A DNA stretch of 64,000 nt from an uncultured Pseudomonadota bacterium (GTDB lineage Bacteria > CALINM01): assembly GCA_964540515.1 (NCBI GenBank), contig CAZIMS010000010.1, positions 6,395 to 70,394 on the forward strand, in the 5' to 3' direction. The notes beneath the pieces are model-generated. The model saw only the letters and a list, made by a program, of their open reading frames with translations, made no database searches and had not been told where the DNA came from. Each line of letters begins with the position of its first letter. Position 1 is the stretch's first letter. Below are positions 42,842 to 64,000 of the stretch, piece after piece. A program made the position numbers and the translations under genes.

Positions 42842-42843
42842 AA

Positions 42844-44046: not shown

Positions 44047-44048
44047 AT

Positions 44049-44429: not shown

Positions 44430-44456
44430 ACCAGTATATTTTACAGAATATTAATC

Positions 44457-45545
44457 TTACTTTGCATAGACCTTAGGACTATGTTCTACATCATGACATT
44501 TAAGATAACAACTACCTCTAAATATCCCCTCGGACTTAAACTCGATTTTATTTGTTGTTGTCTCTCTTTTCACATAATCAGGGTTAAACTCTATCAAAAA
44601 TTTATTCTTTTCAGAGCCGTGTGGGCTGTGACAGGTGCTACAAGAGGTGCCTTTCCAGTTTCTTACCTTGACACCTTCTATATGTTCTCTGTGATAGGGG
44701 AAGCTTTCATTACCCAAGATGCTCTCTTTCCTATGACAGCTATAACATAAATCGTAGTTAGGAATAAGTGTCTCTTCTTTTTTTGTATAGGGTAATATAA
44801 GGATATAATCATTGTTTGAGCCATGCACCCCTTCAACTCTTTTTCCACCCTTTGTATCACTACCATGACAACTACTACATTTAATCATAGTCTCATAGGT
44901 TATACCTTCTTTAAGACTCGGCAAATAATTGTTCTTTCCAACTGCCACAACAGGATGATATGAAGGGTTATTTGGATTAAACTCTCTTAGCTTATTTTTT
45001 TGATAAAAAGGCTTATTTGCGTCTGCTCCATGGCATTTAAAGCAGACTTCATACTCATAATAGGCCTTCTTGACAAACTTACCTTCTATATTAACACCAC
45101 TAACCCCCCAGTGAGGAACCTCTGGAATAGAATCATGAGGACTATGGCAATCAAGACACTCGCTATGTCTTGGCAAATCAGGGTTAGTTACAGGATAAAC
45201 TTCATTATATTTATGTAAACCCTTCCTTTCTACAGGATGTCTATAGGGTTTATCAAAATCGGCGGCCACATTTTTTGCATTTTTTATATTAAGCCTCATC
45301 TTTTCTAACTTTTTAGATGCCCTATGCTTAGGACCGTGACAGGTATAACATTGGACTTCTTCTTCGCTACCTGAGTATCTAATACCTGCGTGACAGGTTT
45401 TACAGCCTCCGGGGTTATTTTCCGATAAAAGATGGGTACCCTTTTTCGTTTGTACTAAAAATTCAATCTCTTCTCTAGTTAAAGAATAGGCATTTATTGC
45501 AAAGCTTAAGATAAATAGACCTGTAAAAAAAATTTTTATCATCAT
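44457..45545 (-). CDS. exported multiheme cytochrome c (7 CxxCH + 1 CX3CH)
   Basis: CKTCH, CYTCH, CLDCH, CFKCH, CSSCH, CYSCH, CSTCH, CYLKCH; signal peptide. Confidence 0.9.
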   Translation of the reverse strand: MMIKIFFTGLFILSFAINAYSLTREEIEFLVQTKKGTHLLSENNPGGCKTCHAGIRYSGSEEEVQCYTCHGPKHRASKKLEKMRLNIKNAKNVAADFDKPYRHPVERKGLHKYNEVYPVTNPDLPRHSECLDCHSPHDSIPEVPHWGVSGVNIEGKFVKKAYYEYEVCFKCHGADANKPFYQKNKLREFNPNNPSYHPVVAVGKNNYLPSLKEGITYETMIKCSSCHGSDTKGGKRVEGVHGSNNDYILILPYTKKEETLIPNYDLCYSCHRKESILGNESFPYHREHIEGVKVRNWKGTSCSTCHSPHGSEKNKFLIEFNPDYVKRETTTNKIEFKSEGIFRGSCYLKCHDVEHSPKVYAK

Positions 45546-45548
45546 TCT

Positions 45549-46403
45549 CTACCTATTGTGGCAATGATTACAAAAACCGTAGTTACTAGCGTTAAAGTGA
45601 GCACAGGACCAATTAGTAAAAGATATTCTCTCCCTCATAAATTTTCCATACTGATTATTATGTGGTTCATGACAAGTAGCGCATTGAATACCTGTGCCAT
45701 TAGGATTAGAACTGCCGTTATAACCTAAATAACCAGTAGGCCTTAAAGGATAAATGGGTTCTCCTGCAACACCATCTACACAATCTATGTTAGTACTTCC
45801 GGCAGTTAATCCATATTTTCCTGTTCCACATATATTATTAGTGCTATTTCTCAACTTCCAAACATCACCGTCGGCAATCTTTTTTGCTATTAAGGCATCT
45901 GTTACAGCTATTGATATAGGATGGGCTGGATGATTTCCTGTGGGATCATTAAAATCAGAACCAAAGTAAATATCAGCAGTGGGAAGAATCTTGCCTTGTA
46001 TATCAACATAGTTAGTGCCTACAACATGTATATTCCCTTTAATCATATCGCCTACTGATACGGTTCCATCATGGCAGGAAAGACAGAGTTTTGAGCCTTT
46101 ATCGGGTTGATTTCTAGGGCTTCTAAGTGTAGCAGAACTAAAGGTGCGATATGTTGCCGTTGATAACTTATGTCCCCATAAAGGTGTGTCTATAGCACCG
46201 TGAGGAACATGACAGAACTTACATATCTGATTTTCATCAACAGCTTTTACCTTAACAACAGGTCTGTCAGTAGAGGTAGTAGCCCAGCTTGCAAGATTAT
46301 GAGGGCTTTTAGAAATAGGAGCGTTCTTTATATCTACAGCCTTAATTGCGGTAGGTATAAGGAAAAGAAGTATCAAGATTGCATATATCAATATATTTCT
46401 CAA
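45549..46403 (-). CDS. OmcE-like exported tetraheme cytochrome c
   Basis: Signal peptide; SPHNL, QICKFCHVPH, PLW, SKLCLSCHDG, HPIS, CATCHEPH, FCNHCHNR in the order and spacing I recall for Geobacter OmcE. Confidence 0.8.
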   Translation of the reverse strand: MRNILIYAILILLFLIPTAIKAVDIKNAPISKSPHNLASWATTSTDRPVVKVKAVDENQICKFCHVPHGAIDTPLWGHKLSTATYRTFSSATLRSPRNQPDKGSKLCLSCHDGTVSVGDMIKGNIHVVGTNYVDIQGKILPTADIYFGSDFNDPTGNHPAHPISIAVTDALIAKKIADGDVWKLRNSTNNICGTGKYGLTAGSTNIDCVDGVAGEPIYPLRPTGYLGYNGSSNPNGTGIQCATCHEPHNNQYGKFMRERISFTNWSCAHFNASNYGFCNHCHNR

Positions 46404-47455
46404 CTATCTTCTCCAAGATATTTTATAATTTGAAGTCTTCTATTCAAACTATCTGTAACATATATATAGTTTTTGTTATCAATAAATATGCCCGAGGGCA
46501 AGTTAAACTGACCTGGAAAAACTCCCTCTTCCCCTAATACAGCAAGCAGTTTCCCCTCCTTACTAAAGACCTGTATAGAATCTTGGAGGCTATCAACTAC
46601 ATATATATTGCCATCTTTATCGGAGCATACACCTTTAGGTCTTTCTAAATTACCATCTCCTTTTCCCATCTGACCTATTGAACCCATGTATTTTCCATTT
46701 AAATCAAAGATTTGTATTCTAAAATTCATACTATCAGTTACATAAAGCTCTTCTTTATTATCATTTACGTAAATATGAGTGGGGTAATTAAACTCGACCT
46801 TTTCTTCACCTCTTGCCCCTATCACTTTAATAGTATCAAAATTTTTATTTAAAACTCTCACATTATGATTAATGGTATCTACTACATAAAATCTCTTTTT
46901 CTTCTCAGAATAGGATATACCACTGGGTCTCCAATTAGTCTCTTTTAATGTTTTACTATCTACAGGATAACCATTTTTATCGTAAATTACAATTCTCTTT
47001 TTTTCAGGATCTGCAACATAGATATAGCCTTCATCATCAACTACTACAGAGGTTGGATAAAATAGTTTATCGCCATCCTTAGTGTCTCTTAAAAAATCTA
47101 CAGTCCCCTTATTAAGATCAAAAACAATAACAGATAATACACCCTGATCAACCACATAAATCCTTTCATCTTTAGCAAAAACCGCATAGGGCTTAACAAA
47201 TTCTATAAAGGGGGATGTCTCTTCTCCTAAAAGCCATTTAAGAAACCTGTCAGTCTTGGTCTCCTTTATCAGATCTTTTTTAAAGTCATTGGCGGTATTT
47301 ATAATTTTTATTAACTCATATCTTGGCTTTGAAGGTGGCGCAGGCCATTTAAGCCCTATAGTGCTATTATAAAAAGATGAAGGGTCACTTACTCCTATAT
47401 GATAAGAACAACCCACTAAAAGTAGAAAGACTAAGAAAAACTTAAGCCTACTCAT
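46400..47455 (-). CDS. NHL-repeat (6-bladed beta-propeller) lipoprotein
   Basis: Lipobox LVGC; repeats FxxPxxIxV, IYVxDxxNxRIQIF. Confidence 0.9.
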   Translation of the reverse strand: MSRLKFFLVFLLLVGCSYHIGVSDPSSFYNSTIGLKWPAPPSKPRYELIKIINTANDFKKDLIKETKTDRFLKWLLGEETSPFIEFVKPYAVFAKDERIYVVDQGVLSVIVFDLNKGTVDFLRDTKDGDKLFYPTSVVVDDEGYIYVADPEKKRIVIYDKNGYPVDSKTLKETNWRPSGISYSEKKKRFYVVDTINHNVRVLNKNFDTIKVIGARGEEKVEFNYPTHIYVNDNKEELYVTDSMNFRIQIFDLNGKYMGSIGQMGKGDGNLERPKGVCSDKDGNIYVVDSLQDSIQVFSKEGKLLAVLGEEGVFPGQFNLPSGIFIDNKNYIYVTDSLNRRLQIIKYLGEDS

Positions 47456-47618
47456 TTGTTTGATATTATATCATAAAATTATTATCTTATAGAGAAAATT
47501 TAAGATTAGACTTTTTACTAATATTATATGTGAAAAGTTGTGCAATCTATTGAAAATACTTATTTTTTGAATTAATCTATGTCTTAAAGTAAAATTTAAC
47601 TTGGGGGTTAAATAAATA

Positions 47619-50600
47619 ATGGAAAAAGATTCCTGTGGCGTTGGTTTTATATCAAACCTAAAAAATATAAAATCCTATGACATATTAGCAAAAGGTATAG
47701 AAGCAGTTAAAAACTTAACCCATAGAGGCGCCATTGGTTCAGACGGTAAGACAGGCGATGGTTGTGGTATCCTCTTTGAAATACCTGAAAGATTTTTCAA
47801 AAATTATCTTATCGAGTCTAATTCTAATCTAGAAAATATGAAAAATATAGCTGTAGGTGTCTTTTTCTCGAAAAATGAGCTGATGTTAGAAAAATTAGAA
47901 CATTTTTTTTCTTCCTTCGGTTTTGAGAGTATTTTCAAAAGGAAGGTGCCTATAGAAATCTCAGCTTTAGGAGAGATCTCTAAGAAAACATTACCCTATA
48001 TTAACCAGATAATTATACCCCATAACTTTCCTAAAGATGCGGCAGAAAAAAAGCTTTTCTTAATAGAAAGACTTATAGAAAAGGCCTTTGATGACATAAA
48101 CGTTGTTTCTTTATCAACCTACTCTATCGTCTATAAGGGTATGTTAATAGCGCCTTATTTAGATATTTTCTACCCTGACCTTAAAAATACAGATTTTGAG
48201 ACATCTTACTGTGTCTTTCATCAGAGATATTCTACAAACACAATCCCAAGATGGGAGCTGGCTCAACCTTTTGGGTCTTTAGCACATAACGGTGAGATAA
48301 ACACTATAAAGGCTAATAGGATCAAGTTCTCTTCCCATGAAGAAAAGATCACTATAAAAGACTTCCCTGAACATTATGAAAAAATTAAACCTTTGCTTAC
48401 AAATCAAGAAAGTGATTCGGCATCTCTTGATAAAGTCTTTAGACTTCTCATATTAAACGGCTACTCTCCAGAGTTAGCAATCAATCTGCTAATCCCCCCT
48501 GCTTGGGAAAATCTGCCTTTTATTGATAAAAAGTTACAATCCTTCTTTCAATATAATGAGTTAATTTGTGAGCCCTGGGATGGTCCCTCAGCCATCGTAT
48601 TTTGCGATGGCAAGACAATCGGTGTCCACTTAGACAGAAATGGTCTTAGACCACTAAGATACTCTCTATCTGATGATGGCATAATCATCGTAGGTTCTGA
48701 GGCAGGGATGGTTAATTTTGACACGAAGATTATAAAAGAGGGTAAGCTAAACTCTGGTGGCTCCCTATCTCTTAAGATAGATAAAGGAGTTGTAAGAGTT
48801 AATACAGAAATACTAAGAGAGTTATCCATAAAGAAGAATTTTGAAAAAACTCTATCAAAAGGCTTCAAAAGTATAGATTTAATAAATGATTTTTTTGATG
48901 ATTTAGATGAAGAAAGTCTAAAAAAACTATCAGTGGCATTTGGCTACACTAAAGAAGAGATTAATGAGATACTTCCTTTCGCTGGCGAAAAAGGTATGGA
49001 GTTTACCTACTCAATGGGAGATGATACTCCATTACCACCATTGGCAAAAAATCCTCCTCTAATATTTCGTTATTTTAAACAAAAGTTCGCCCAAGTTACA
49101 AACCCACCAATAGACCCAATTCGTGAAAAACCAGTTATGTCCCTGACTGTGTATATTGGTGAAAGAGGAGATATGCTAAACTATAATGACCCTATCCACA
49201 AAGATAAGTTAGCCATAAAAACTCCAATATTATCAACAGGGGAGCTTAGGGAGATAAAAAAACATTTCAAAGGTAGAACAAAAGAGATATCTACCTTATA
49301 TGAAGATGATAAAGATATAAAATCTGCCATAAAAGATTTGCAGAAGAAGGTAAAAGAGGCCCTCTTAGAAAACAACATAGTGATAATCCTTACAGATAAA
49401 GGATTAAAAAAGGGATTCTATTACATCCCAGCTTTAATTGCTCTATCAACTGCTGTTAAAGAGTCAAAGAGATTAAAATTAAGCCATAAGGTTAACTATA
49501 TTGTTGAGTCAGGAGAGATAAGAGACTCCCACCACATAAGCTGTATCTTAGCCTATGGTGCAAAGGCACTATACCCTTATCTTGCCTACGAATTGGTCAA
49601 GCAAAAAGGCAAAAAACCAGAATTTTTAAGGTTTGCCTTTAACCATGGTTTACAGAAAATCATGTCAAAAATGGGGATATCTTGCGTAAGCTCTTACATA
49701 GATAGCAAACTCTTTGATATAGTTTGTCTTGATAAACATCTGGTTGAAGAATTTTTTGAAGATACTGACTACTCGTTAAGTGGGTCTAACATTGAAGACA
49801 TATCTGAAAACTATAAATTTTATCTTGAGAGAGCCTTCAAAGAAAATAGCGAGAATACTATAGGTGGAGACTTAAGATTTACAAAAGATGGCGAGTGGCA
49901 TGGATGGTCTCCAATGATAATCTCCTCTCTAAATCGTTACTTTAAATCCAAAGATTGGAATGATTACATTAAATATACCAATGAGGCCACCTCTTTATAC
50001 CCCACATATATTAGAGATTTATTGGATATAAAAGAGGGCAAACCAATAGATATAGAAAATACAGAGCCAGAAGAAAAGATATTTAAGAGATTCTCAATCG
50101 CAGGTATGTCTATTGGTGCTCTATCGCCAGAAGCCCACAGCACCATAATGAGATCTGCAAATATGCTTGGTATTAAATGCAACAGTGGTGAGGGGGGGGA
50201 AGATCAATCTAAGTATTGGACTAATGATGGTTCCAAGATAAGGCAGGTTGCCTCTGGTAGATTTGGTGTTACGCCAGATTTTCTTGCTTCAGCAGAAGAG
50301 ATAGAGATTAAGATAGCACAAGGTGCAAAACCTGGAGAAGGTGGACAGCTACCGGGCAACAAGGTAAGTGCCTATATCGCTAAACTAAGACACTCTCAAG
50401 AAGGTATAACATTAATCTCACCACCACCCCATCACGACATTTACTCAATTGAAGACCTTGCTCAGCTAATAAATGATCTAAAAAATATAAACCCTTACGC
50501 AAAAATAGGTGTAAAGCTTGTATCAGAAAAAGGCATAGGACATATAGCCTGCGGAGTAGCAAAGGCTAAAGCAGATTTTATTCAAATCAGTGCAGTAGAT

Positions 50601-51893
50601 GGTGGAACTGGTGCATCCCCCTATGTCTCAATAAAAAATGCTGGCAGTTATCTTGAGCTTGCCATTGCTGAAGTTCATTTAAGTCTTATTGAGATGGGAT
50701 TGCGTGAAAATGTAGCATTAAGAGTCGATGGCGGGTTAAAATGTGGCAGAGATATAATTATTTGTGCCCTACTTGGAGCAGAAGAGTTTGCCTTTGGGAC
50801 CCTTGCTATGATTGCCTTAGGCTGTATTATGGATAGAAAATGTCATCTAAATAACTGTTCCGTAGGTATAGCTACACAAGAGCCAGAGCTAAGAAAACGT
50901 TTTCGTGGTTCTCAGGAAAACTTCTGTCTTCTCTTTAAATCCATAGCAAGAGAAGTTAGAGAGTGGCTTGCCAAGATGGGATTTAGCAGTATTGAGGATA
51001 TTATAGGTAAAGCATACCTATTAAGCAAAAAGGACTGGGAAGACAATAAAAAGACAAAAAAGATTGAGATAGAAAATATTTTAGAAAAATATAACAAAAA
51101 TACTCACAAGTTTTGCAAAACTACAATAAACATCCCATCAGGTAATGACTTAAATATAAAAATATGTGAAGATTTAGAACAAAAAATAGAGAAACACCAA
51201 GAAATAATAAGATTTTACTCTATAAAAAACACCGACAGAAGTATACCTGTACGCTTAAGCTACCTTTTATCAAAGTACTACAAAGGCAATCCTATCCCTG
51301 AAGATCTCATTAAGATTAGGTTTGAAGGTACAGCAGGACAGAGCTTTGGTGCCTTTTGCCAGAGAGGGTTGTACCTTGAGCTTATTGGTATAGCCAACGA
51401 CTATGTTGGTAAGGGCATGGCAGGTGGTAAAATTATTATCAGGTCAAAAGATCTTTCCGAGACCAGCAAAAACTATTTAGCAGGCAATGCAATCCTCTAT
51501 GGAGCAACAGGAGGACACCTCTTCATTGCTGGAAGAGTAGGAGAAAGATTTGCTGTGAGAAATAGTGGTGCCAATGCAGTGATAGAGGGAGCTGGTCATC
51601 ACCTTTGTGAATATATGACAGGAGGCATTGTTTGTCTTCTTGGTAACACAGGACTTAATGTGGGAGCTGGGATGACAGGTGGTATAATCTACATCCTTGA
51701 TGAGCTAAACAATATAGAAAGTAGAATAAACAAAGACTACGTAAAAGTAGAAAAAATACCTGAAGAAAAACTTGCTATTCTCTTTGATTTAATAACCCAA
51801 CATTACTTCTACACTGAAAGCCCCAAAGCCTATTACATAATTAAAAATTGGGATTCCTACAAGGAAAAATTTAAGGTCATAATGCCTATGTAG
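47619..51893 (+). CDS. gltB: glutamate synthase large subunit
   Basis: DSCGVGF, HQRYSTNT, HNGEINT, WDGP, QVTNPPIDPIRE, QVASGRFGV, AQGAKPGEGGQLPG, GCIMDRKCHLNNC, GXGXG domain. Confidence 0.97.
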   Translation: MEKDSCGVGFISNLKNIKSYDILAKGIEAVKNLTHRGAIGSDGKTGDGCGILFEIPERFFKNYLIESNSNLENMKNIAVGVFFSKNELMLEKLEHFFSSFGFESIFKRKVPIEISALGEISKKTLPYINQIIIPHNFPKDAAEKKLFLIERLIEKAFDDINVVSLSTYSIVYKGMLIAPYLDIFYPDLKNTDFETSYCVFHQRYSTNTIPRWELAQPFGSLAHNGEINTIKANRIKFSSHEEKITIKDFPEHYEKIKPLLTNQESDSASLDKVFRLLILNGYSPELAINLLIPPAWENLPFIDKKLQSFFQYNELICEPWDGPSAIVFCDGKTIGVHLDRNGLRPLRYSLSDDGIIIVGSEAGMVNFDTKIIKEGKLNSGGSLSLKIDKGVVRVNTEILRELSIKKNFEKTLSKGFKSIDLINDFFDDLDEESLKKLSVAFGYTKEEINEILPFAGEKGMEFTYSMGDDTPLPPLAKNPPLIFRYFKQKFAQVTNPPIDPIREKPVMSLTVYIGERGDMLNYNDPIHKDKLAIKTPILSTGELREIKKHFKGRTKEISTLYEDDKDIKSAIKDLQKKVKEALLENNIVIILTDKGLKKGFYYIPALIALSTAVKESKRLKLSHKVNYIVESGEIRDSHHISCILAYGAKALYPYLAYELVKQKGKKPEFLRFAFNHGLQKIMSKMGISCVSSYIDSKLFDIVCLDKHLVEEFFEDTDYSLSGSNIEDISENYKFYLERAFKENSENTIGGDLRFTKDGEWHGWSPMIISSLNRYFKSKDWNDYIKYTNEATSLYPTYIRDLLDIKEGKPIDIENTEPEEKIFKRFSIAGMSIGALSPEAHSTIMRSANMLGIKCNSGEGGEDQSKYWTNDGSKIRQVASGRFGVTPDFLASAEEIEIKIAQGAKPGEGGQLPGNKVSAYIAKLRHSQEGITLISPPPHHDIYSIEDLAQLINDLKNINPYAKIGVKLVSEKGIGHIACGVAKAKADFIQISAVDGGTGASPYVSIKNAGSYLELAIAEVHLSLIEMGLRENVALRVDGGLKCGRDIIICALLGAEEFAFGTLAMIALGCIMDRKCHLNNCSVGIATQEPELRKRFRGSQENFCLLFKSIAREVREWLAKMGFSSIEDIIGKAYLLSKKDWEDNKKTKKIEIENILEKYNKNTHKFCKTTINIPSGNDLNIKICEDLEQKIEKHQEIIRFYSIKNTDRSIPVRLSYLLSKYYKGNPIPEDLIKIRFEGTAGQSFGAFCQRGLYLELIGIANDYVGKGMAGGKIIIRSKDLSETSKNYLAGNAILYGATGGHLFIAGRVGERFAVRNSGANAVIEGAGHHLCEYMTGGIVCLLGNTGLNVGAGMTGGIIYILDELNNIESRINKDYVKVEKIPEEKLAILFDLITQHYFYTESPKAYYIIKNWDSYKEKFKVIMPM

Positions 51894-52287
51894 AAATAAA
51901 AAAATAGCCAGAACCAATGTTGAATTATAAAAAAAGAAAAATTCTTGAAAAAACAACCTTGATTTGGGTTGACTTAGGCTGGGAAAACAAAAGAATAAAG
52001 TAGGTGAGCTTATTTTTTTGATTATCTATATTAAACAAAATATCATAAATTATCTTTGTTGTTTTTAAAACTAACTGATTTTTTCAAACTTATTTTTATC
52101 CCTCTTTAAACATATTCAGAAGTTTAAAAAAGTTTACTTAATGTTACAGATATATAGGGGGAAGAAGACTAAGTTTTTTTTACAAGCAATATAACACAAC
52201 ATCTTTCCTAATATCAAAAAAGATATTGATTTTATAGTAATTTTGATATAGATTAAAATAAGTCAAATTTTGTCTTACTCATATTAT

Positions 52288-52302
52288 TGGTATGCTTATT
52301 GC
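52288..52302 (+). promoter_or_regulatory. sigma54 -24/-12 promoter of the DUF11 operon
   Basis: TGGTATGCTTATTGC with exact GG-N10-GC spacing, 17 bp before ATG 52320. Confidence 0.75.
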
Positions 52303-52319
52303 GGAACATATAAAAAAGA

Positions 52320-55300
52320 ATGATAGCTGTTAAGATTAAAAAAACGATACTATTTTTTATATTAATTTTAAACATTTCTACTACGTCATATGCCTTAACA
52401 ATAACGCCAAATACCTGGAATATTATAGGTCTTGATAGCAATTCCCCAGCAACAGGTCCAAACCAATTTCCAGTCGGAGCAAAAATTTGTGGAGGTACTC
52501 CCAATACCAATCAAGTAGTTACCTTTAACTGGGATACAGGTGGCACAGACAACGGTACATACATCTATCTGAGACCAGGTTCTCAAAACCCAATTACAAT
52601 CACATATGGCCCAGATGGATGTGCAGATGCCTTTTTTGAAGTAGAGGTTGCAAAAACATCTTTGGCCTTTGACAAAACAAGAAGGTATTACATCTCAGCA
52701 GGAAGTTATATTTCTCCAAGACCAAGAGAGCTTTATGTAGAACGTCTTGTTTCTCAAGGTAGAAACTATATTACCGATATTAGATTAAATGGGGTCTCTA
52801 TACCTGCAGGTGGCACTATGAACCTAATGGAAGGCAAAACCTATACAATCCAATTATATGGGGGTACTGCTACTCAAGGATATAATCAGTTTCAGATGTT
52901 TATTAACTTTTCTAATACTATATTTCAAATACTTTCTGTCTCAATTAACTATTCAGCGAATAACTCCCCCTATGTTTCTACTACTGGACATAAATATCTC
53001 TATGCCAATGCTTGTAAATGGGAAAATGACCCCAATAGTCCTAATTATCTTTCCTGCTTAGAAGACTGGAAATCTGGGGGAAGTAATGTAGTTACTACCT
53101 ATGTAGTTAAAATATTGAGCGGAGCAGGAAGCGCTGAGACACTAAGAACTCTACTTCAAGACTTTTCAGGTAGTAGTTTCCACTACAACTCCGATTACTC
53201 TACAAGCGCAAGAATTGCAAATATTCTTGGACCTGCATCTATAACAATTAATAAAAGCTTTACTCCTAAAACAATCATGCCTTATGATACATCAACTCTT
53301 ACTTTTACAATTAACAACCCAACCCCGGAAACTGTTTCAGGTGTTAATTTTTCAGATAGCTTTCCATCAGGCCTAACTGTTGCAGCCCCCCTAATGTAAC
53401 TTATAACGGATGTGGTGCTGGTAGCTTTTCACCTTCACTCAACGGTGGAGAAACATCCCTATACTTTTCTAATGGAACAATTAATGCAAATAGTTCTTGT
53501 GTAATAACATTAAATGTTACATCTTCTTCTGAGGGAACTTATAATAACACCACTAACAACCTATATATTGATAATACTGTAAACACTGGAAATACCGGCA
53601 ATGACTCACTAATAGTAAGTACAATCCCCCCTCCTCCTTCTTCATGTGGTACACGACAGACAATGGCTACATGGACAATGCCTACAACCGGGCAAGGAAG
53701 CGGAGGTCCACCACCACCTTATACAACAAAGGCTCCTGATGTTGCAACCGCTACTGCCTCAAGCACTGGAGGAACTTCTATAATAAGTACAACACAAGGT
53801 AATCCTGTGAACTCATGGGGTCTTAATAACTGGCCATCATCAGGAACCTTAACACCACCAGCAAATCCTACTACTTACTACGAGTTTACTGTAGATTCAA
53901 GTAATTATGGTGGTGTTCAGATATCATTTAGTTATTTTCTGCCAGGTGGTGACTGGGCAAATCCCGGAGATAACTATGTGTATGTTTATTCAAAAGCAGA
54001 TAATGGGCCTTATAATTCAGGTAGTGGATTTTCTGCTACAAAAGGAAGTTGGACAACCCAAACTTATACCGCTACTACCACAGGTACAAGCACCACTACC
54101 TTTAGAATAAGCTTTGCAGGCTCAAGGAATGCCACAGTCTATGCTTACTTAGACAATATAACCATCTCAGGTTGCCAACGACCAAATCCACCAAACATTT
54201 CCAAGTTATTCTCACCAAATATCATTCAATTAAATGGCACTTCAACTCTTACCTTTACCATTACAAATCCTAATCCTGCTGCCTCACTTAGTGGGATCTC
54301 TTTTACAGACATCTTGCCATCGGGGCTCCACATTGGTAACTCAACCACAACCGTATGTAATGGTGGAACTTTAACTACAAACTCCTCTACAAAGACAATA
54401 TCATTAAGTAACGCATCTTTAGCAGGAGGATCAAGTTGTAATTTTAGTGTTACTGTTACCGGAACTACCGCAGGTCAACATACAAATATAAGTACAAATG
54501 TTACGGCAACCCAAAGCGGTCCTAATAATGGAGGCCCAAACATTGGTTATGCCTATGCTGTTTTGACAGTCTTAGCACCACCTGATTTTTCGAAGGCTTT
54601 TTCTCCAACATCAATATACACTGGTAATACCTCAACCCTTACTTTTACTATAAATAACCCAAATCTATATAACTCCTTTACGAATATTGCCTTTACTGAT
54701 ACCTTACCAGCTGGACTTTCAGTTGGAAACGGAACCTATTCTGTTTGCGGTGGCACAAATAACCTTACCACTAATGCTGCCACAAGGCAAATTACCTTAA
54801 CAGGGGGAACTCTTGCCGCTAACAGCGGATGTAATTTTAGTGTTATAATTATAGGTTCAACAGCTGGTAGTTACACTAATACCTCTGGCAATATTACTGC
54901 CACATCAGGATCAGTTAATCTTACAGGAGGAAATGCTGTAGCAAGTATTACGGTTATTAACAGGGTTTCATCTCTTGACTTAAAAAAACAAGTATCGTCA
55001 AACCCAACAGGACCATGGACAAGTTATACACCAGTCGCTCCAGGGGGTAATGTTTATTACAGATTTAAAGTTTATAACAGTGGAGATACAGAATTATATG
55101 ACATTTGGATTACTGAAGTTTCAGGCTCTATAAATCCAACCTGTTCATTTCCAAACCCTTTACTGCCCGGCGATGATGCATATTGTTATTCCTCTGCTGT
55201 AACAGCCATTACTGGTATCCATACAAATACTGCCTATGCAAGTGGTAGATATCCAAGCGGTGGTACAATCTATAACTCTGCAAACTCTTCAGCTACCTAT

Positions 55301-56719
55301 GCAACTACAGGACTTACTCTTACAAAAAATGCCGATGAAACTAATTATAAAGTAATTGGTGAGACTATCCATTACAACTACACAGTTACTAACTCGGGTT
55401 ATGCAGTTCTTTCTGGTTATGTGTCTGTAACTGACAATAAAACATCTGTATCCTGTCCAGCAATAAATACTATTGGAGATTTAGATAACTATTTTGACCC
55501 CGGTGAATCTATTATCTGCGGTGCTACCTACAACATAACAAATGCTGATATCCTTGCAAAATCTTTAACAAATACAGCTCAAGCAAGTATAGGCGTAACT
55601 ACATCTAATAATGCGTCAAAGACCATAACCTTGGCTCCTGCGGACCTAACAGCAATAAAGAAAAATAATACAAACAATCAAGTAGTTGCAGGACATGCCT
55701 TTGACTGGACAATAATTGTTGCTAATGATACAAACGAAGGTTCTGCTCCTTTTTTAAACTCAGAAATTATCCTTTTAGACAATCTTCCCAATACAAATGT
55801 AAGCTATACCTTAGGCACTGTGAAAAAATCTGGAATTATTGGTAACATTAACTGTTCTCTTTCAACTGATACAATCACTTGCAGTGCCGATGGAAATGTG
55901 ATTATACCATCAAGATTACAAGGCACCATTGCTGTAACAAACAACAGCCCAAATATTGTAGGTACAGGGACAGCTTTTACCGCTGATTTATCAGTAGGCA
56001 GTATAATATTAATAAACAATGTTCCCTATACAGTCTTATCTATTGCAAATGACACCAATCTCACTCTATCATCAAACTATACCGGAGTTACGGCAAGTGG
56101 CATTATAATACCTGCCTCCTTTATTATTAACGTAACCACATCTGTTACACTACAGGCAATAGGTTCCCTAACCAATCCTAAAAGTGGAGGTGTCTGTAAG
56201 GTAGATCCAGATAGCCTTCTTTTGGAAACTAACGAAAGTAATAACGATTGTTATGATGCTGTTTCTGTAATAGTTATGCCAAGTATAACAGTTCTAAAAT
56301 CGGTTCAACCTTTTTCTGACCCTATAAATGGCATTACCAATCCCAAAACAATACCTGGTGGTGAGGTAATATATACCATATTAGTAATTAACTCTGGAGC
56401 TGGCTCTGTGGATAACGACAGCATAAATATGGAAGATCCAATACCAACAAATACTATTATGTGTGTATCAAACACTTGTTACAACCCACCTATCAGCTTT
56501 AGTTGTAGCACTACCCCTCCCTGCGGCCTTATCTTTAATCTTAGTAGCGACGTCACTTATTATGATGCAGGCAATAATGTTTACATACCTACACCTGACG
56601 CTGAAGGTTATGATCCTCTTGTAAGAAAGATAAAAATTAATCCAAAAGGAGTGTTAAATGGTTCTACTGGTCCCCCTCATCCTAATTTTAGCATAACCTT
56701 TAAGGTTAAGATACAATGA
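52320..56719 (+). pseudogene. large exported DUF11-repeat adhesin split by a 1-nt frameshift (1466 aa if restored)
   Basis: Track ORFs 52320-53399 and 53663-56719 join if the C6 run at 53386-53391 is C7 (VAAP-PNVTYNGCGAG...). The intervening frame is open. Repeated K-F.P..TSTLTFTI.NP...F.D.LP.GL Ig-like units. Confidence 0.8.
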
Positions 56720-57705
56720 GAAAGTCATTTTTTATTGTAATTTTTTTATTTTTAGTCTTTACAAACTCGGCTTACAGCGCCGGTACACCTGCTGGTACTG
56801 TTATTAATAATAGTGTAAAACTCGTTTTTAATTATGGAGATCAAAAGGGATTAGAGGCTATAGCTCAAACATCTATCACCGTTGACAATAAGGTTAATGT
56901 TATAGTTACAAATCTTGGCAATACTAATGTTATCCCCGGTGAGAAGGAAAAGCCTCTCATTTTTACATTAACTAATGCAGGAAATTCTTCACAAAGATAT
57001 AGATTAGAAGTTGGTCCTGTCTATGCACCAAACAATGTAGAGTTAACAAACATAAAAATTTTTTGGGACAAAGATAACAGTAGCACAGTAACCCCAGAAG
57101 ATACCCTTTATGTAGATCCAGAAAGCTTTGGCAACATATTACCTGACCAAACCATAAAAATTTTGGTTATCGCAGACATACCTGATAATTTAGAAAATGG
57201 CCAATTCTCTCAATACTATCTTATGGCTACAACTGTTGATGCAGATACTAAAAATGATACCCTTCCATCACAGGGTTCAAACACAAGCGGAGTTGATATA
57301 GTATTTGCAGATACAGATGGTGTGGTTGATATTAATAAAGACGGTAAACACTCTGCCTTAGGTCTTTTTCTTGTTAAAACAGCTATTGTTAAGATAGAAA
57401 AATCGATGGAGGTAATATCAGACCCCTATGGAGAAAATAAACCATATAAAAACTCAATAATTCGTTACTCATTAATTGTTACTGTAGAGGGAGAGGCAAA
57501 AGCAGAAAAGGTGGTAATTATAGACAACATACCAGAAGGCACATGGTATGTAGCCAACTCAATAAAGTTAAATGGTAACCCTCTAACGGACAGCAATGAC
57601 GGAGACAATGGCTATATATCAGATAATACTATTTATGTAAAACTTGGAGATTTGACCCAAAAGACACCCAAACAGATAATAACCTTTGATGTGAAAATAA
57701 AATGA
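56716..57705 (+). CDS. exported DUF11 protein, putative minor subunit
   Basis: Signal peptide; AGTPAGTVINN, TVDNKVNV, FTLTNAGN, DNIPEGTWYV; ATGA overlap with the adhesin. Confidence 0.75.
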   Translation: MRKSFFIVIFLFLVFTNSAYSAGTPAGTVINNSVKLVFNYGDQKGLEAIAQTSITVDNKVNVIVTNLGNTNVIPGEKEKPLIFTLTNAGNSSQRYRLEVGPVYAPNNVELTNIKIFWDKDNSSTVTPEDTLYVDPESFGNILPDQTIKILVIADIPDNLENGQFSQYYLMATTVDADTKNDTLPSQGSNTSGVDIVFADTDGVVDINKDGKHSALGLFLVKTAIVKIEKSMEVISDPYGENKPYKNSIIRYSLIVTVEGEAKAEKVVIIDNIPEGTWYVANSIKLNGNPLTDSNDGDNGYISDNTIYVKLGDLTQKTPKQIITFDVKIK

Positions 57706-57779
57706 GCTTTAGAGCTAAGAAATTTTAGATAAGAGTATTTTTAAAAAAAACACAGCTTATAAAAAAAGGAGGTGATTTC

Positions 57780-58265
57780 ATGTTAAAAAAGTTTTTTTTA
57801 TTCTTTCTTCTTGTCTTTGCTCTTGTAGCAAATGCCTATGCCAGTAGTGTGGAGATTACGTCTAAATCTGAGGTAGAGATTACTGTAAAGAAGCCCGATG
57901 AAACGATTGAGAAAAAAAGAGTTCCTGCAAACCAAGTAAATGTAGGTCCTGGAGATGTTGTGTTTTTTTCTAATACCTGTCTCAATAGGGGAGATAAACC
58001 AGCAGAGAATGTGATAATTACAAACCCAATACCTAATCACACTGTCTATGTAGCTGGTTCTGCCTATGGTGAGAATAGCAAGATAGAGTTTTCTATAGAT
58101 GGAGGAAAAACCTATGGCATTCCAGAAGCACTAAAGGTTAAAGACAAAGATGGCAAAACAAGACTTGCAAGACCAGAAGAGTACACCCACATAAGATGGT
58201 TGTTATTAAAACCATTGGAACCAGGTAGCCAAATTGTTGTTACTTTCCAAGCAAAAATAAAATAA
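57780..58265 (+). CDS. small exported DUF11 protein, putative chaperone-like component
   Basis: Signal peptide; PGDVV, ENVIITNPIP.HTVYV, FSIDGGKTYG, YTHIRW; strong SD AGGAGG. Confidence 0.75.
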   Translation: MLKKFFLFFLLVFALVANAYASSVEITSKSEVEITVKKPDETIEKKRVPANQVNVGPGDVVFFSNTCLNRGDKPAENVIITNPIPNHTVYVAGSAYGENSKIEFSIDGGKTYGIPEALKVKDKDGKTRLARPEEYTHIRWLLLKPLEPGSQIVVTFQAKIK

Positions 58266-58277
58266 AAGGAGAAAAAA

Positions 58278-59426
58278 ATGAAAACTCGCGGAAGTACATT
58301 ATTTTGTGTAAGTATTTTATTTCTTCTGACAATCTATGTCAAAGAAGCACTGTCAGCAACACCTGCCTGTACAGTAATATCTAACCAAGCAACTGTAAGT
58401 TATTCTGTAGGTGGTGTTGCACAGCCAAATGTTAGCAGTGCAGCTAATCAGGCTGATTTTACGGTTGGTGCCAAGATTAATGTTACTGTCACAAATAATG
58501 ACGGTGCAAATGTAACAGTAACACCTGGCGGAAAGGCAGCATTAAAATTTACAGTCACTAATGATGGTAATGTTACTAATGATGTAGATTTAAGTTATGT
58601 TGCTGCTTCTTCGGGTACTGCTAGCCCCTATGGTGGTGGAAACGATTCTTTTGATGGAACAACTATAGGAATCTATGAAGATACTAATAGTAACGGAACT
58701 TATGACGATGGGGTTGATCAAGCTGCAAATACTATAAATGACTTAGCTCCTGGTAATTCAAAGGTATTCTTCATAGTATATAATGCCAATGATTTAGCTC
58801 AACCAGCTGGAAGCATAGCCGTTTATTATCTTGTAGCTCAAGCTAAATGGGCTAATAATACTTCCATTTCAGAAGGCGACCCAATTAGTGTCACTTCAGC
58901 TATGACTGGCATTTTGGCTTGTGGTGGTGGAACAAACATAGCGGTAGTTTTTGCTGATGCTAATGGTCCTGCCCCTGATACCTATGATGATACAAGAGAT
59001 GGCAAAAATTCTGATGACGGTGCCTATATAGTTCAAAATGCCACTATTTCTGTAACTAAAACATCTGCAATTTATTCAGACCCTGTAAATGGCACTACTT
59101 CTCCTAAGGCTATACCTGGTGCAGTAATAACATACACAATTACTATCAGTAATACAGGTAATGCTGACGCTACAATAACACTATCCGATAGTTTGGCAAC
59201 TCAGATAGGCAACGGATATATAGCATTTAAGACTCAATTTGTCGATGGTTCTCACAGTTGTAGTTCAGGAGAAGGTATAGTCGTTGATGGCGTATGTAAA
59301 ACAAATGCAAACGATGGAGATAATGCCGACTGGAATGCTACGGCTGCAAACACTGTCACAGTGACAAATTTATCGGTACCACAGAGTCAATCAAAAGTAG
59401 TTAAGTTTCAAGTAATAATACAGTAA
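58278..59426 (+). CDS. exported DUF11 protein, putative major subunit
   Basis: Signal peptide; ATPACTVISNQATVSYSVGG, FTVGAKINV, FTVTNDGN, KAIPGAVITYTITISN; paralogue of 56716-57705; followed by a hairpin. Confidence 0.75.
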   Translation: MKTRGSTLFCVSILFLLTIYVKEALSATPACTVISNQATVSYSVGGVAQPNVSSAANQADFTVGAKINVTVTNNDGANVTVTPGGKAALKFTVTNDGNVTNDVDLSYVAASSGTASPYGGGNDSFDGTTIGIYEDTNSNGTYDDGVDQAANTINDLAPGNSKVFFIVYNANDLAQPAGSIAVYYLVAQAKWANNTSISEGDPISVTSAMTGILACGGGTNIAVVFADANGPAPDTYDDTRDGKNSDDGAYIVQNATISVTKTSAIYSDPVNGTTSPKAIPGAVITYTITISNTGNADATITLSDSLATQIGNGYIAFKTQFVDGSHSCSSGEGIVVDGVCKTNANDGDNADWNATAANTVTVTNLSVPQSQSKVVKFQVIIQ

Positions 59427-59436
59427 AAACTGAACT

Positions 59437-59480
59437 TTTAGAGGCTGTGGATTTTAAACTCACAGCCTCTAAATTAATTT
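59437..59480 (+). terminator. intercistronic 13-bp stem-loop after the putative major subunit
   Basis: TTTAGAGGCTGTG (59437-59449) / CACAGCCTCTAAA (59461-59473), then TTAATTT. Confidence 0.7.
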
Positions 59481-61206
59481 TAATGAGAGAACGAAGAGAT
59501 AAAATTTTTTATAAAGCCTTTAAAATAACCCTTGCTATATGGATAGGGATTTTTACAACCCTTTTTGTATCCTCAAAGGCCTTTTCTATTACATTAATTA
59601 ATAACAATGCCACAGCAGAATATACTGTGGGAGGACTTACTAAAACTACCCTTTCTAATTTAGTAAAAAGTAAAGTTTGTGAAAGAGCTGATTTAGAGTT
59701 ACTTAGGTACGCACCAACCTCAATTAAGGCAAAAAAGCATATTTTTAGAAAAACCCTTTATATCACTGCTAACGGCACAGAAGTTGAGCTTTCAAATCCT
59801 AAAGACTTTATCTCCAATAATGAAATACCTTCGGGGATTGAAGTACCATTATCTATAGCAGATATATTTCATGCTGGCGAACCTGCCTTTTTAAAAGTTA
59901 TTGACGGTGACCATAATATTGATAATACAAAAATTGATGAGATTACGGTAAGCATACTTGTATATAACGAAAAAAAAGGTGAAATCTACGACGAAGAGAA
60001 ATTAAAAATTTTTGAAACTGATGTTGATACAGGAGTATTTATAGGCTTTATAGAGTCCTCAAGAAAATCTGCCATAAAAAACGACGGTCTTTTAAGCGTA
60101 AAAGAGAATTTTAAAATAATTCTCTCCTAAGCTGATAATTGTGGTCCTGACGATACCTCTACCAATGTTAAAATAATTAAGTCATCCAGTCTTGTTGACC
60201 CCTTTGGTATAATCTTTGATAGTTCCAATGGTAAACCTTTAAATGGTGTAAAAATTACTTTACTTAATGCAAGCACAAACCTGCCTGCAACTGTCTATGG
60301 TGATGACGGTGTGAGTACCTTCCCATCGACTGTCATAACTGGTAGCACAGTAACTGATAGCTCAGGCGTAGTCTATGTATTTAGTGAAGGTGAGTATAGA
60401 TTCCCTCTAATACCTGCTGGTGATTATATACTCAAAGTTGAACCTCCTAATGGATACAAATGGCCTTCTTTAGTGTCTGATGAAAACTTAAATAAGCTTA
60501 ATAATGGTGCTTTTATAATAACAATTGGCTCAAGGGGAGAGACCTTTAATGTTCCCCATGACTCACTACCTATTAAAATAGATATTCCTTTAGACCCTGT
60601 AAATTTAACTGCTCTTTACCTCACAAAAGAAGCTGCTAAAGAAACAATATCTTTAGGAGAGTTTTTGAGATATAAATTAACTTTGGAAAACATAAGCCTC
60701 TATAACATAAATAATGTTGTGGTTAAAGATAATCTGCCCCTTGGTTTTAAATATAAATCTGGTTCTACAAAGGTTAATGGCACTCAAATTCAAGACCCTA
60801 TAATATCAGCCGATGGTAGAACCTTAGAGTATTTCTTAGGCAATTTAGCCACTAATTCAAAGATTGTAATAACCTATGTAGTAGAGATTGCAGCAGGAGC
60901 TAAGTTTGGTAATTCACAAAATGTTGCATTCGCTATTGGAGATGGTGGAATGAATTCTAACACTGCTAAGGCAGAAGTTCTCGTTAAAGATGACCTATTT
61001 CAGACAAAAAGCTTTATAATTGGAAAAGTAGCAATAGGCTGTAAAAATGTAGAACAGGACACTAAACCTGAAATAAAGATTGAAAAAGAGATAGAATATA
61101 TAAAAAAAGAAGAAAAGGGGAGTTTATCTGCTCAGTTATTTAGTTCTATTTCTGAGAAGGATAGTATCTATAATTTTATAAATAGGATTAATCTAAGAAA
61201 TTCCGA

Positions 61207-61915
61207 TTTAGGTGTCAGTAATGTTCGTGTAATCATTAAAGTACCAGACGGTATGAGATATCAGAGTGGTAGCAGTAGTTTTGGAGACAAGCCTATAGAG
61301 CCTCAAATAATACAAGGTAGTGAGCTTACTTATAAATTAGGAGACTTACCTGCTGGATTTAATGGCGACCTAACCTTTTTAACAATGCTACCAAAAACAC
61401 AAAAAGATACTGAGTTAACAACAAAGGCATCAGTAATATTTGATACTGAAAACGAAAAAGATCTAATTATAGATGGTTTAGATACAGTATATAAACTTAC
61501 AAGAAAGAGTGAAGCAACAACAGTTCCACCTATAGTAATAAGACCTAATTTTAGTTCTGGCAGTGCCATACTTACGGAGGAAGACAAGCTTAGGTTAGAT
61601 GACCTAATATCTCGACTAAAGGATTACAAGATAAAAAGTATAGAAGTTATAGGACACACAGATAATCAAAAAATGGGACAAAGGCTAAAGAGCACTTATC
61701 CTGATAACTATGCCCTCTCAAAGGCAAGGGCAGAAAGTGTTATCAGTTATCTAATGAGATTTTTAGACTTATCACCTGCTACATTAAGGACAGTAGGTAA
61801 AGGAGAAGATGAACCAGTAGTACCAAACACAAATGAGTATAATATGTCTATCAACAGAAGAGTTGAGATTAATATCATCGCAGAAAAAGTTAACAATTTT
61901 TATCAAGTTTTGCCA
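61207..61915 (+). repeat. 709-bp direct repeat, copy 1
   Basis: Identical by eye to 62446-63154 (offset 1239 bp = 413 codons). The ORF track shows identical shadow ORFs at 61330 and 62569, same offset. Confidence 0.92.
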
Positions 61916-62445
61916 CTTGTAGAAAAAAGTAAAATCAAAAATAAAGAGTTTGTTACTACAAAAATAGAGAAGAGAGAGACGATAAAAGAGGTTCAGAATA
62001 AAAAGAAGGAAGAAAAGGTAGACAACTTTGGGGAAGGTGTACCAGGCATTCGCATATACATGGAAGATGGAACTTATGTAATTACCGATAAAAACGGGAT
62101 GTATCACTTTGAAGGCATAAAACCTGGTGCTCATGTGCTACAGCTTGACAAAAAGACCATACCAGAAGGCTATGAAGCAGTACTATATGAGGATAACACA
62201 AGATTCGCTGGAACGCCTTACTCAAGATTTGTTGATATTCAAGGTGGCACTGTGTGGAGAGCCGACTTTTACCTTTGTAAAAAACCAAAAGAAGAAAAAA
62301 AACCTTTAGAAGTTACGACAGACAAGTTAGTAGAGAAAACAACAGTCGTAAAGAAGGGTACCTTAAAAACAAGCCTTATTAGCTCTTTAGTAGATAATCT
62401 CAATGAAAAAAATATTCGCTATAAACTACCTTTAAACGTAGAAGC

Positions 62446-63154
62446 TTTAGGTGTCAGTAATGTTCGTGTAATCATTAAAGTACCAGACGGTATGAGATAT
62501 CAGAGTGGTAGCAGTAGTTTTGGAGACAAGCCTATAGAGCCTCAAATAATACAAGGTAGTGAGCTTACTTATAAATTAGGAGACTTACCTGCTGGATTTA
62601 ATGGCGACCTAACCTTTTTAACAATGCTACCAAAAACACAAAAAGATACTGAGTTAACAACAAAGGCATCAGTAATATTTGATACTGAAAACGAAAAAGA
62701 TCTAATTATAGATGGTTTAGATACAGTATATAAACTTACAAGAAAGAGTGAAGCAACAACAGTTCCACCTATAGTAATAAGACCTAATTTTAGTTCTGGC
62801 AGTGCCATACTTACGGAGGAAGACAAGCTTAGGTTAGATGACCTAATATCTCGACTAAAGGATTACAAGATAAAAAGTATAGAAGTTATAGGACACACAG
62901 ATAATCAAAAAATGGGACAAAGGCTAAAGAGCACTTATCCTGATAACTATGCCCTCTCAAAGGCAAGGGCAGAAAGTGTTATCAGTTATCTAATGAGATT
63001 TTTAGACTTATCACCTGCTACATTAAGGACAGTAGGTAAAGGAGAAGATGAACCAGTAGTACCAAACACAAATGAGTATAATATGTCTATCAACAGAAGA
63101 GTTGAGATTAATATCATCGCAGAAAAAGTTAACAATTTTTATCAAGTTTTGCCA
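62446..63154 (+). repeat. 709-bp direct repeat, copy 2
   Basis: Runs TTTAGGTGTCAGTAA...CAAGTTTTGCCA exactly as copy 1; flanking bases differ. Confidence 0.92.
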
Positions 63155-64000
63155 ATAAAGGAGAAAAACGAAGATAAATATCTGAAATTCATAAAAACTG
63201 AGACTGTAAAAGAAGAGGTTACCAAGCTTGAAAAAAAGACAAGTCAAACTGAAAAGAATGAACAATCCAATAAAAGAGAGATAAAATCTATTAGTGATCT
63301 TACACAAGAATGGATTGAGAGAGAAAGACCAGGTTTTGAGTTTGTTTTACCAAAAGACGGATATTATCCACCTTTACCGTACTTGGATATTGCTATAAAG
63401 TATGACCCCAGCTCAAAATTAAGATTATTTATCAATGGCAAAGAAGTGGAAGACATTTTCGTTGATTCAACGAGAAAAAATAGCATGCTTCTAACAGGAT
63501 TAAAAATTTGGTCTGGTGTAAACCTAACAGAGGGAGACAATGTATTAGAAGCTATTGAGTATGATGCTAAAGGTAAGGAATCGAGAAGAATCAAAAAAAT
63601 AGTCCATTACTCAGGACCACCCGTAACACTTAAACTTGTTCCCGAAAAATCTAGGCTTATCGCCGATGGCAAAAATCCACCTGTTATTGCTGTTAAACTA
63701 CTTGATAAAGACGGACATCCTGCAAGGGAAAATGTTGTTGGCGAATACACAATCTTGCCACCCTATATGCCATTTAATGTATTGAAGGACTTACAGGCTG
63801 ACCCATTAACTAAATCAACTAAAGCCTATAGTAATTACATTGTTAAAGAAGAAGGAATAACCTACATTGAGCTTGCACCCACATCTCAAACAGGTGAGGT
63901 AACGATTAAGTTTAACCTCATAAGCGGTGAAAAAGAACTAAAAGTATGGCTAAAACCTGAAAAAAGAGATTGGATATTAGTTGGACTTGCCGAAGGCACA

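Follow-up and report, generated by a model that had tools for sequence, protein, structure and literature searches.

In chaperone-usher pili (type 1, P, and archaic), immunoglobulin-like (Ig-like) subunits are exported by Sec with an incomplete C-terminal fold, and the strand that fills the gap is donated by the N-terminus of the following subunit. Behind a donor-less tip adhesin come an adaptor and the major subunit, and a final subunit terminates the fibre. The exit is a large outer-membrane barrel that contains a plug-like insert, and the gene of the major subunit is followed by a hairpin. The second point of reference is the fibrillar adhesins of the DUF11 family. DUF11 was renamed CLIPPER in 2025; its crystal structure (PDB 9IFR) is CnaA-like and has an autocatalytic Lys-Asp-Asn isopeptide bond, and DUF7507, DUF7927, and DUF7933 are its sister families (PMC12617251). 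In the window analyzed here, i.e., 64,000 nucleotides (nt) of contig CAZIMS010000010.1 from an uncultured Pseudomonadota bacterium, five co-directional genes (g1 to g5, g5 being the giant gene) were found on the + strand, 3' of gltB (47619-51893). The operon appears to share all the listed features of chaperone-usher pili, the completion of the fold by a neighbouring subunit and the exit through a plugged barrel being predictions. With the CLIPPER adhesins it shares the family and the Lys-Asp-Asn spacing, and its tip and giant proteins hold complete domains. Unlike the known triads, which lie within one chain, the terminal domain of four proteins here has no Asn strand, and that strand is encoded at other N-termini. 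On computation alone, we consider it rather probable that the operon encodes a donor-strand fibre, probably locked by intermolecular isopeptide bonds, which would be exported through and anchored by the giant protein.

The donor-strand logic was recognized at the sequence level as a truncation at DUF11 position 84 of 114 combined with donor-strand motifs. The g1, g2, g3, and g4 proteins all terminate at the same CLIPPER point, i.e., ...(I/V)xFx(V/A)x(I/V)x*, before the Asn strand. In members without a large insertion, the C-terminal domain matched profile positions 8-84 and the protein ended there. The truncated domain stops after the seventh-strand region and retains the isopeptide Lys and the catalytic Asp. 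The acceptor-only g1 protein has the C-terminal motifs ...SITVLK...MEDPIP...FSITFKVKIQ*. The missing Asn strand was found just past the signal peptide of g2, g4, and g5, which start with (A/G)T..(G/C)T.I.N.A..(Y/F). An N-terminal strand common to the 329- and 382-amino-acid (aa) proteins had been noticed in the initial annotation; it was confirmed, and it is also present in the giant protein.

When the N-terminal segment was appended to the C-terminal domain, the Pfam match was extended to positions 98-109 and gained 1 to 5 bits. In profile-profile comparison, the g4 C-terminal domain was aligned with the complete CLIPPER domain found inside giant proteins. With the donor strand appended, the score was 74.2 (102 columns); it was 65.4 (83 columns) when the strand was omitted and 68.5 (84 columns) when it was reversed. 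The alignment with the strand crossed the junction uninterrupted, and the N-x-A of the donor fell on the canonical N-x-A, with Asp matched to Asp. Five residues, i.e., T28, N36, K261, D268, and D304, were invariant across 82 diverse g4 homologues. Profile searches of PDB with the permuted C-terminal domain plus donor alignment, and with the CLIPPER domain of the giant protein, gave no matches.

Relatives of g4 were found in 479 genomes of several phyla by scanning one genome per species, and 80 loci were fetched. Gene order and family membership were scored in 84 loci using hidden Markov models built for this analysis. At least 604 proteins of the collection searched belong to the g4 family. 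The fetched loci belonged to Nitrospirota, Sphingomonadaceae, Erythrobacter, Caulobacter, Burkholderiales, several Gammaproteobacteria, Deltaproteobacteria including Geobacter, Verrucomicrobiota, Eiseniibacteriota, and Pedobacter. The closest relatives in the species scan were Nitrospirota metagenome-assembled genomes, at approximately 41% identity. Cultured carriers include Novosphingobium arvoryzae KCTC 32422, Sphingomonas oligophenolica JCM 12082, Erythrobacter litoralis SNB-035, and Caulobacter sp. RHG1. A co-occurrence survey had been proposed in the initial annotation; here the genes g2, g3, g4, and giant were contiguous and in the same order in 60/84 loci across phyla, and the remainder were mostly cut contigs or variants without g2. 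The cassette consists of the tip adhesin, proteins of approximately 330, 160, and 380 aa, and a giant protein of 1600-2350 aa. A large variable tip-like protein with the same C-terminal domain was encoded upstream or downstream in 47 loci.

The motifs were distributed in a polar manner among these proteins. The tip proteins have the truncated end with the acceptor Lys and Asp (each 47/48), and the donor motif was found in 2/47 of them. Both parts are present in g2, i.e., the donor motif in 55/62 and a truncated end, with Lys and Asp each in 62/62, and in g4, where the donor motif was found in 77/80 and Lys and Asp each in 80/80. The giant protein has the donor motif (61/62) and no truncated end, so that the acceptor residues are not applicable. 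The g3 proteins have the truncated end, the donor motif in 6/78, no conserved Lys, and Asn at the Asp position in 70/78. The.F.V.I.* ending is common to g2, g3, g4, and tip proteins and is not found in the giant protein. Every motif-bearing sequence has the donor Asn. This distribution is consistent with the pattern expected of a polar fibre, i.e., an acceptor-only tip, donor and acceptor subunits, and a donor-only base, and the proposed donor-strand polarity was borne out in the sequences. The argument for complementation in trans rests on the acceptor-only and donor-only proteins.

In Pfam search, g1 was assigned four DUF7933 domains, one of them straddling a frameshift, and a DUF7507 domain. 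The g2, g3, and g4 proteins gave sub-threshold matches to DUF11 or DUF7927, and g5 showed CarboxypepD_reg, a full DUF11 domain, two OmpA domains, and SdrD_B. The Lys/Asp/Asn triads of the operon proteins have the spacing published for CLIPPER-type domains. The triads described in the initial annotation are thus present, but their fold class is CnaA-like and not CnaB-type (PMC12617251). As a positive control, K, D, and N were found in 63/63 sequences of the CLIPPER domain inside giant proteins. This internal domain and the DUF7933 and DUF7507 domains of g1 agree with the definition of an intramolecular Lys-Asp-Asn bond. The C-terminal domains of tip, g2, and g4 do not, although Lys and Asp are present, because the chain ends at the truncation point and the Asn strand comes from elsewhere in the proteome. 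A covalent link between subunits is plausible because the donor strand carries the isopeptide Asn.

The g3 gene was found in 78/84 loci, and many orthologues are approximately 165 aa long. The reactive Lys and Asp were lost specifically in this protein, suggesting that reactivity matters in the others. The 161-aa protein had been labelled as the chaperone of the operon; as a CLIPPER-like domain in which the reactive Lys and Asp are missing, it accepts strands and does not donate them, so that label did not hold in its original sense. It is probably a non-covalent acceptor, i.e., a chaperone, decoy, or cap. Head-to-tail g3 modules were found in proteins of approximately 320 aa (P0284, P0327, and P0319). 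One open reading frame (ORF) fuses a response-regulator receiver domain to g3, which may be a merged gene call.

The in-window part of the giant protein aligned to residues 237-1001 of a homologue of 1801 aa (L005). The window ends at RDWILVGLAEG, the start of a conserved C-terminal region of approximately 780 aa, and approximately 800 aa of predicted barrel lie beyond the window. This region shows 41-46% identity between phyla and has at least 406 homologues. No Pfam family was assigned to it, and a PDB sequence search gave only one chance-level match (E = 0.072). This region of the giant protein lies past base 64000, and the homologue P0121 (799 aa, alignment of 38 sequences) was modelled with AlphaFold2 (AF2). 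The model is all-beta with approximately 32-39 long strands (predicted local distance difference test, pLDDT, 75.7), in the order of approximately seven strands, a small inserted beta domain (residues 149-200), and approximately 32 long antiparallel strands. In fold search, the highest ranks were taken by SprA (type IX system), LptD, and Deinococcus SlpA, then by TonB-dependent receptors; the ushers PapC and FimD ranked only 33rd and 37th, with template modelling (TM) scores of approximately 0.22. The giant protein is therefore predicted to end in an outer-membrane beta-barrel of very large size, which holds a plug-like insert and is not an usher homologue. The C-terminal barrel expected in the initial annotation is thus predicted in full-length homologues, and its usher-like label was not supported. 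Both the N-terminal region and the barrel are carried by 62/65 long giant ORFs. In the gammaproteobacterial locus L008, an IS66-family transposase (13584-15035) splits the giant gene into ORFs of 775 and 1300 aa, and in L006 the gene is split into ORFs of 1159 and 799 aa without an insertion sequence.

The giant protein in the window has two OmpA (PF00691) stretches, scoring 109.5 bits against a cut-off of 27.2. Peptidoglycan anchoring through OmpA was part of the initial annotation; the domains are there, but they are accessory, being found in only 21/62 giant proteins, and anchoring of this kind was rejected as a core feature. These domains would also suit a giant protein whose main role is that of an envelope tether or S-layer-type anchor, comparable to Deinococcus SlpA with its peptidoglycan-binding domain and 30-strand barrel, where the small proteins decorate it and are not exported through it. 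The SlpA structures 8agd, 8ae1, and 7zgx among the top fold matches point the same way. We regard a tether as very unlikely, considering that 41/62 giants are without OmpA domains and 61/62 have the N-terminal donor strand, that the predicted barrel has an inserted plug-like domain, and that the tip proteins are variable, adhesin-like multi-domain stalks. In the favoured fibre, the giant protein would at the least anchor or terminate the chain and might also be its pore. At giant residues ~135-209 (window 59483-60127), NCBIfam gave a faint match to the S-layer glycoprotein Kustd1514 of anammox bacteria (E = 0.007, well under the cut-off), which probably reflects only a common Ig-like repeat.

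Several observations weigh against the fibre. Two of the five operon genes are broken in this strain. The donor strand raises the Pfam score only slightly (reversed controls changed by -1 to +1 bits), and in 1/4 family members tested the score dropped when the strand was added. Tandem g3-g3 proteins exist without an Asn strand between the modules, so the truncated domain of g3 may be stable alone. In some Nitrospirota, g2 has Ser in place of the donor Asn. The barrel model is of moderate confidence, and all TM-scores of its fold search were 0.3 or lower. The AF2 monomer of g4 (pLDDT 94.2; predicted TM-score, pTM, 0.83) places the donor segment (residues 31-60) at a pLDDT of approximately 95, i.e., docked in cis. 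In the same protein, Cys31 of the donor segment (58368-58370) covaries with Cys215 of the middle domain (58920-58922), with both present in 25 of the 82 homologues, neither in 48, Cys31 alone in 9, and Cys215 alone in none; this covariation fits cis as well as trans.

The confident cis placement, and a cysteine pair that can always be satisfied in cis, are what would be seen if there were no fibre. In that case g2 and g4 would be closed two-domain periplasmic or surface proteins, each completing and perhaps locking its C-terminal domain with its own strand. They would be circularly permuted CLIPPER proteins with an inserted domain, and separate Ig-like proteins would be attached to a large outer-membrane protein. 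We consider this unlikely. The tip and g3 are truncated without a donor strand and the giant has a donor strand without a truncated domain, so some trans complementation is required, and the conserved set of tip, adaptor, major subunit, and anchor is hard to explain without assembly. AF2 monomers also fold donor strands back in strand-exchange pilins, as in the 'closed' TafA (PMC11821415). The cis docking of the g4 strand could thus be a closed transport form, a monomer-prediction artefact as with other strand-exchange pilins, or a sign of no polymer. The Cys31-Cys215 pair puts the N-terminal end of the donor near the junction between the middle and C-terminal domains of the accepting chain, be it the same chain or another. 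Cys328 and Cys340 of g4 also appear and vanish jointly across the 82 homologues. Both pairs probably form disulfides, the first of which would pin the donor strand in place. When the g4 model was used for fold search, the matches were only generic tandem Ig proteins (integrin, complement, and AgI/II; TM of 0.29 or lower) and were uninformative.

The position of the donor Asn is Ser, Gly, or Thr in the g2 of Nitrospirota loci L006, L015, L083, L009, and L017, and the tip-adaptor junction may be non-covalent there. A donor-strand fibre could be without covalent bonds between subunits altogether, with Lys, Asp, and Asn serving only for packing, or could have the bond at some junctions only. The g3 protein keeps the fold without Lys and Asp, and BsaA oligomers are stable in sodium dodecyl sulfate even without the bond (10.1101/2024.11.04.621531). 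On the other side, N36, K261, and D304 are invariant in 82 g4, with near-invariant counterparts in g2, tip, and giant, the triad is present in 63/63 sequences of the complete CLIPPER domain of giant proteins, and the loss of the reactive residues is specific to g3. A fibre of this kind is improbable in our judgement, and the fibre locked by isopeptide bonds is preferred.

The following assembly is proposed. It builds on what the sequences show, i.e., the gene content and its synteny, the polarity of the motifs, the invariant residues, the truncation of the domain, and the fold class of the modelled barrel. That subunits polymerise in trans, bond covalently, and pass through the barrel is what we infer, as is the function of g3. 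All proteins would be exported by Sec. The g2 strand would fill the groove of the tip adhesin, the g4 strand would fill g2, and further g4 subunits would join head to tail. Each junction would rebuild the full Lys-Asp-Asn CLIPPER core, in which an isopeptide bond between the two subunits would probably form autocatalytically. The last g4 would be capped by the N-terminal strand of the giant protein, which would cap it and tie the fibre to the outer-membrane protein, which is peptidoglycan-bound in some lineages. The chain would exit through the giant barrel, which would make the giant protein both exit pore and covalent anchor. The g3 protein may be a reversible holder of donor strands, i.e., chaperone or primer, or a cap. 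It is about evenly balanced, in our view, whether this is a distinct and widespread class of Gram-negative pilus, in which a CLIPPER domain is split between subunits, a single autocatalytic step both polymerises and locks the fibre, a giant protein whose barrel exceeds 30 strands is its secretion channel and covalent tether, g3 is a 'dead' acceptor preventing premature reaction, and none of the machinery has homologues in chaperone-usher, type IV, type V, curli, or sortase pili. The fibre interpretation of the initial annotation was partly supported and was sharpened to a split CLIPPER domain with a giant barrel as anchor and probable pore. Its statement that no experimentally defined system of this kind was known agrees with our literature searches, in which no description of this operon was found. 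In databases, the family members are named 'TIGR01451 repeat protein', 'hypothetical', or 'OmpA family protein'.

The resemblance to chaperone-usher pili is one of analogy only. No PapD-like chaperone (PF00345/PF02753) was matched among the five proteins in Pfam and NCBIfam scans, and no Pfam match to the usher (PF00577), a 24-strand barrel with plug, was found in the barrel region, so the homology implied by the earlier labels was not upheld. Unlike chaperone-usher subunits, the operon subunits are two-domain proteins of CLIPPER type, and the donated segment has a reactive Asn. The predicted barrel is of approximately 32-39 strands, compared with 24, and is fused to the terminating subunit, and the candidate chaperone is a strand acceptor, not a donor.

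Sortase pili of Gram-positive bacteria are also fibres of isopeptide-bearing Ig-like domains (CnaA/CnaB type), with covalent subunit links and the order tip, shaft, and base. In contrast, the present system belongs to two-membrane organisms and has no sortase, LPXTG, or pilin motif, and its link would be an autocatalytic Lys-Asn bond in a two-chain domain, not the product of transpeptidation. Pfam and NCBIfam scans of the five proteins revealed no sortase encoded in the operon, and a motif check detected no LPXTG (LP.TG), lipobox, or prepilin motif in any of them, confirming what had been noted on prepilin motif, sortase, and LPXTG. Type IV pili differ in that the operon proteins are without the prepilin motif (class III signal peptide) and have ordinary cleavable signal peptides; in all five products these were read from the translations as signal-peptidase-I type. 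Type V pili of Bacteroidota differ in that no operon signal peptide has a lipobox.

BsaA, a TasA-family protein of Clostridium perfringens, is similar in mechanism and sets a precedent for covalent donor-strand 'exchange and lock'. Its N-terminal strand enters the neighbour, and an intermolecular isopeptide bond is then formed by Asn, Glu/Asp, and Lys (10.1101/2024.11.04.621531). However, the BsaA fold is TasA/camelysin-like and not CLIPPER, the host is Gram-positive, SipW and type IV pilus genes are needed, and there is no outer-membrane barrel and no set of tip, adaptor, and anchor. No Pfam match to TasA/camelysin-like or SipW-type families was found in the five proteins, and the likeness is in mechanism only. 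Sulfolobus threads (PMC9715654) and haloarchaeal tafi (PMC11821415) are also donor-strand-complemented stacks of Ig-like domains. An inter-subunit isopeptide bond was proposed for the threads (PMC9715654), and the tafi model has the order tip, adaptor, major subunit, and anchor (PMC11821415). These are archaeal systems of unrelated families without an outer membrane, and in the threads the bond joins the N-terminal amine to an Asn of subunit n+2 (PMC9715654). The SpyTag/SpyCatcher pair is likewise a split isopeptide domain, with the reactive last-strand residue on one piece and the Lys and catalytic acid on the other, and joining restores the bond. It differs in being man-made, of CnaB fold (split CnaB2), with a Lys-Asp bond, and not polymeric. 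By analogy, the split CLIPPER junction is probably a natural counterpart of it.

The coordinates of the features are listed in Table 1.

Table 1. Features of the operon in window coordinates. Functional names are predictions.
Feature	Position	Strand	Details
Sigma-54-like -24/-12 element	52288..52302	+	TGGTATGCTTATTGC; GG-N10-GC spacing
g1, candidate tip adhesin gene	52320..56719	+	two ORFs; ~1466 aa once -1 frameshift corrected
g2, candidate adaptor or minor subunit, 329 aa	56716..57705	+	donor strand AGTPAGTVINNSV with Asn32; middle Ig-like domain; truncated CLIPPER acceptor domain, C-terminus ITFDVKIK*
g3, 161 aa, single CLIPPER-like domain	57780..58265	+	same truncation point; without donor strand and conserved Lys; Asp position is Asn (ITNPIP)
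g4, candidate major subunit, 382 aa	58278..59426	+	C-terminus VVKFQVIIQ*
g4 donor strand	Asn36 codon 58383-58385	+	ATPACTVISNQATVSY; N-terminal segment after signal peptide
g4 acceptor residues	Lys261 59058-59060; Asp304 59187-59189	+	truncated C-terminal domain
Hairpin between g4 and giant gene	59437..59473	+	14-bp stem; dG -23.2 kcal/mol, z -5.75
g5, giant gene	59483..64000	+	open at window end; signal peptide, donor strand ITLINNNATAEY (Asn41, 59603-59605), Ig-like domains
Complete CLIPPER domain in giant gene	60614-60979	+	Pfam DUF11
OmpA domains in giant gene	61550-61876 and 62783-63130	+	Pfam

The observation made in the initial annotation was partly confirmed as a whole. The five genes and their signal peptides are there, but g1 is frameshifted and the giant gene holds an in-frame TAA. 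The g1 gene is split into ORF 52320-53399 and ORF 53360-56719 in another frame, and adding one C to the C6 run at 53386-53391 (C7) joins both, giving VAAPPNVTYNGCGAG. In the relative L003 (78% identical), the g1 counterpart is intact with 1463 aa and has no homopolymer at the frameshift position. The C6 homopolymer sits in a genome of 35% G+C. The frameshift could be slippage-type phase variation, decay, or a sequencing error common to the assemblies. The TAA of the giant gene is located at 60128-60130. This codon is Tyr in L003 and TAC in the ~99% identical strain L089, which indicates a nonsense change and not recoding; stop-codon reassignment was rejected, as neighbouring genes end in TAA and the 99% identical strain has TAC. 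Both lesions recur in two further assemblies, L001 and L002. With the tip gene frameshifted and the giant gene carrying a nonsense codon, the system in this strain is probably off or decaying and this copy inactive. In L002 (NCBI GCA_900096875.1, the same or a nearly identical strain), a 1-nt deletion was also found in g2 at the equivalent of window ~56786; it falls within the donor-strand codons and leaves g2 as an ORF of 160-180 aa.

For the giant gene, a start at ATG 59483 (MRERRDK..., signal peptide, then ITLINNNATAEY) is more likely than at GTG 59447, which lies inside the hairpin. The hairpin reported after the 382-aa gene was confirmed (Table 1). It is probably an attenuator or messenger RNA stabiliser, and its place after g4 fits a higher expression of the major subunit. 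A different hairpin was found at the same place in L003, after the g4 counterpart. Rfam and tRNA scans of the window gave no matches.

The sigma-54 promoter of the initial annotation is a plausible candidate. The spacing of TGGTATGCTTATTGC is right, but only 8/11 consensus positions are matched, and it lies 17 nt ahead of the g1 ATG, leaving a leader of approximately 6 nt. The pattern has two matches in the window, compared with 0.33 expected. In L003, a sigma-54-type site TGGCATGAAAAATGCA lies approximately 125 nt upstream, and the operon is adjoined by a histidine kinase, an Hpt protein, and an NtrC-type activator; in L008, an activator gene is adjacent. Among all loci scored, an activator gene was in the flanks of only 6/83 and a strong -24/-12 site upstream of only 5/74. 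Sigma-54 control was rejected as a general feature of the system on these counts; it would be lineage-specific at best, and the candidate site in the window is weak.

Two NtrC-type sigma-54 activators were found elsewhere in the window, at 9958-11298 and 33615-34988, indicating that the organism uses sigma-54. The latter belongs to a type IV pilus / type II secretion-like cluster on the - strand (33615-47455), together with a secretin with TPR repeats (36383-38668) and a T2SSE/MshE-type ATPase (41138-42841). GC skew and AT skew flip sign where the genes turn to the + strand (window 26000-30700 and 47600-64000); this is a coding-strand effect and not evidence for a replication origin.

If the proposed reading is true, covalently linked pili would not be limited to Gram-positive bacteria and would need no sortase, and two-membrane bacteria would have an additional fibre-assembly pathway. 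Its carriers in soil, freshwater, and marine habitats would include Sphingomonadaceae, Caulobacter, Geobacter, Nitrospirota, and others, whose adhesion and aggregation may depend on it. The giant protein would be one of the largest single-chain outer-membrane barrels, and thus a candidate translocon for folded proteins. The junctions tip-g2, g2-g4, g4-g4, and g4-giant would be natural orthogonal tag/catcher pairs for protein ligation. Cultured carriers of the operon exist, which makes the idea directly testable.

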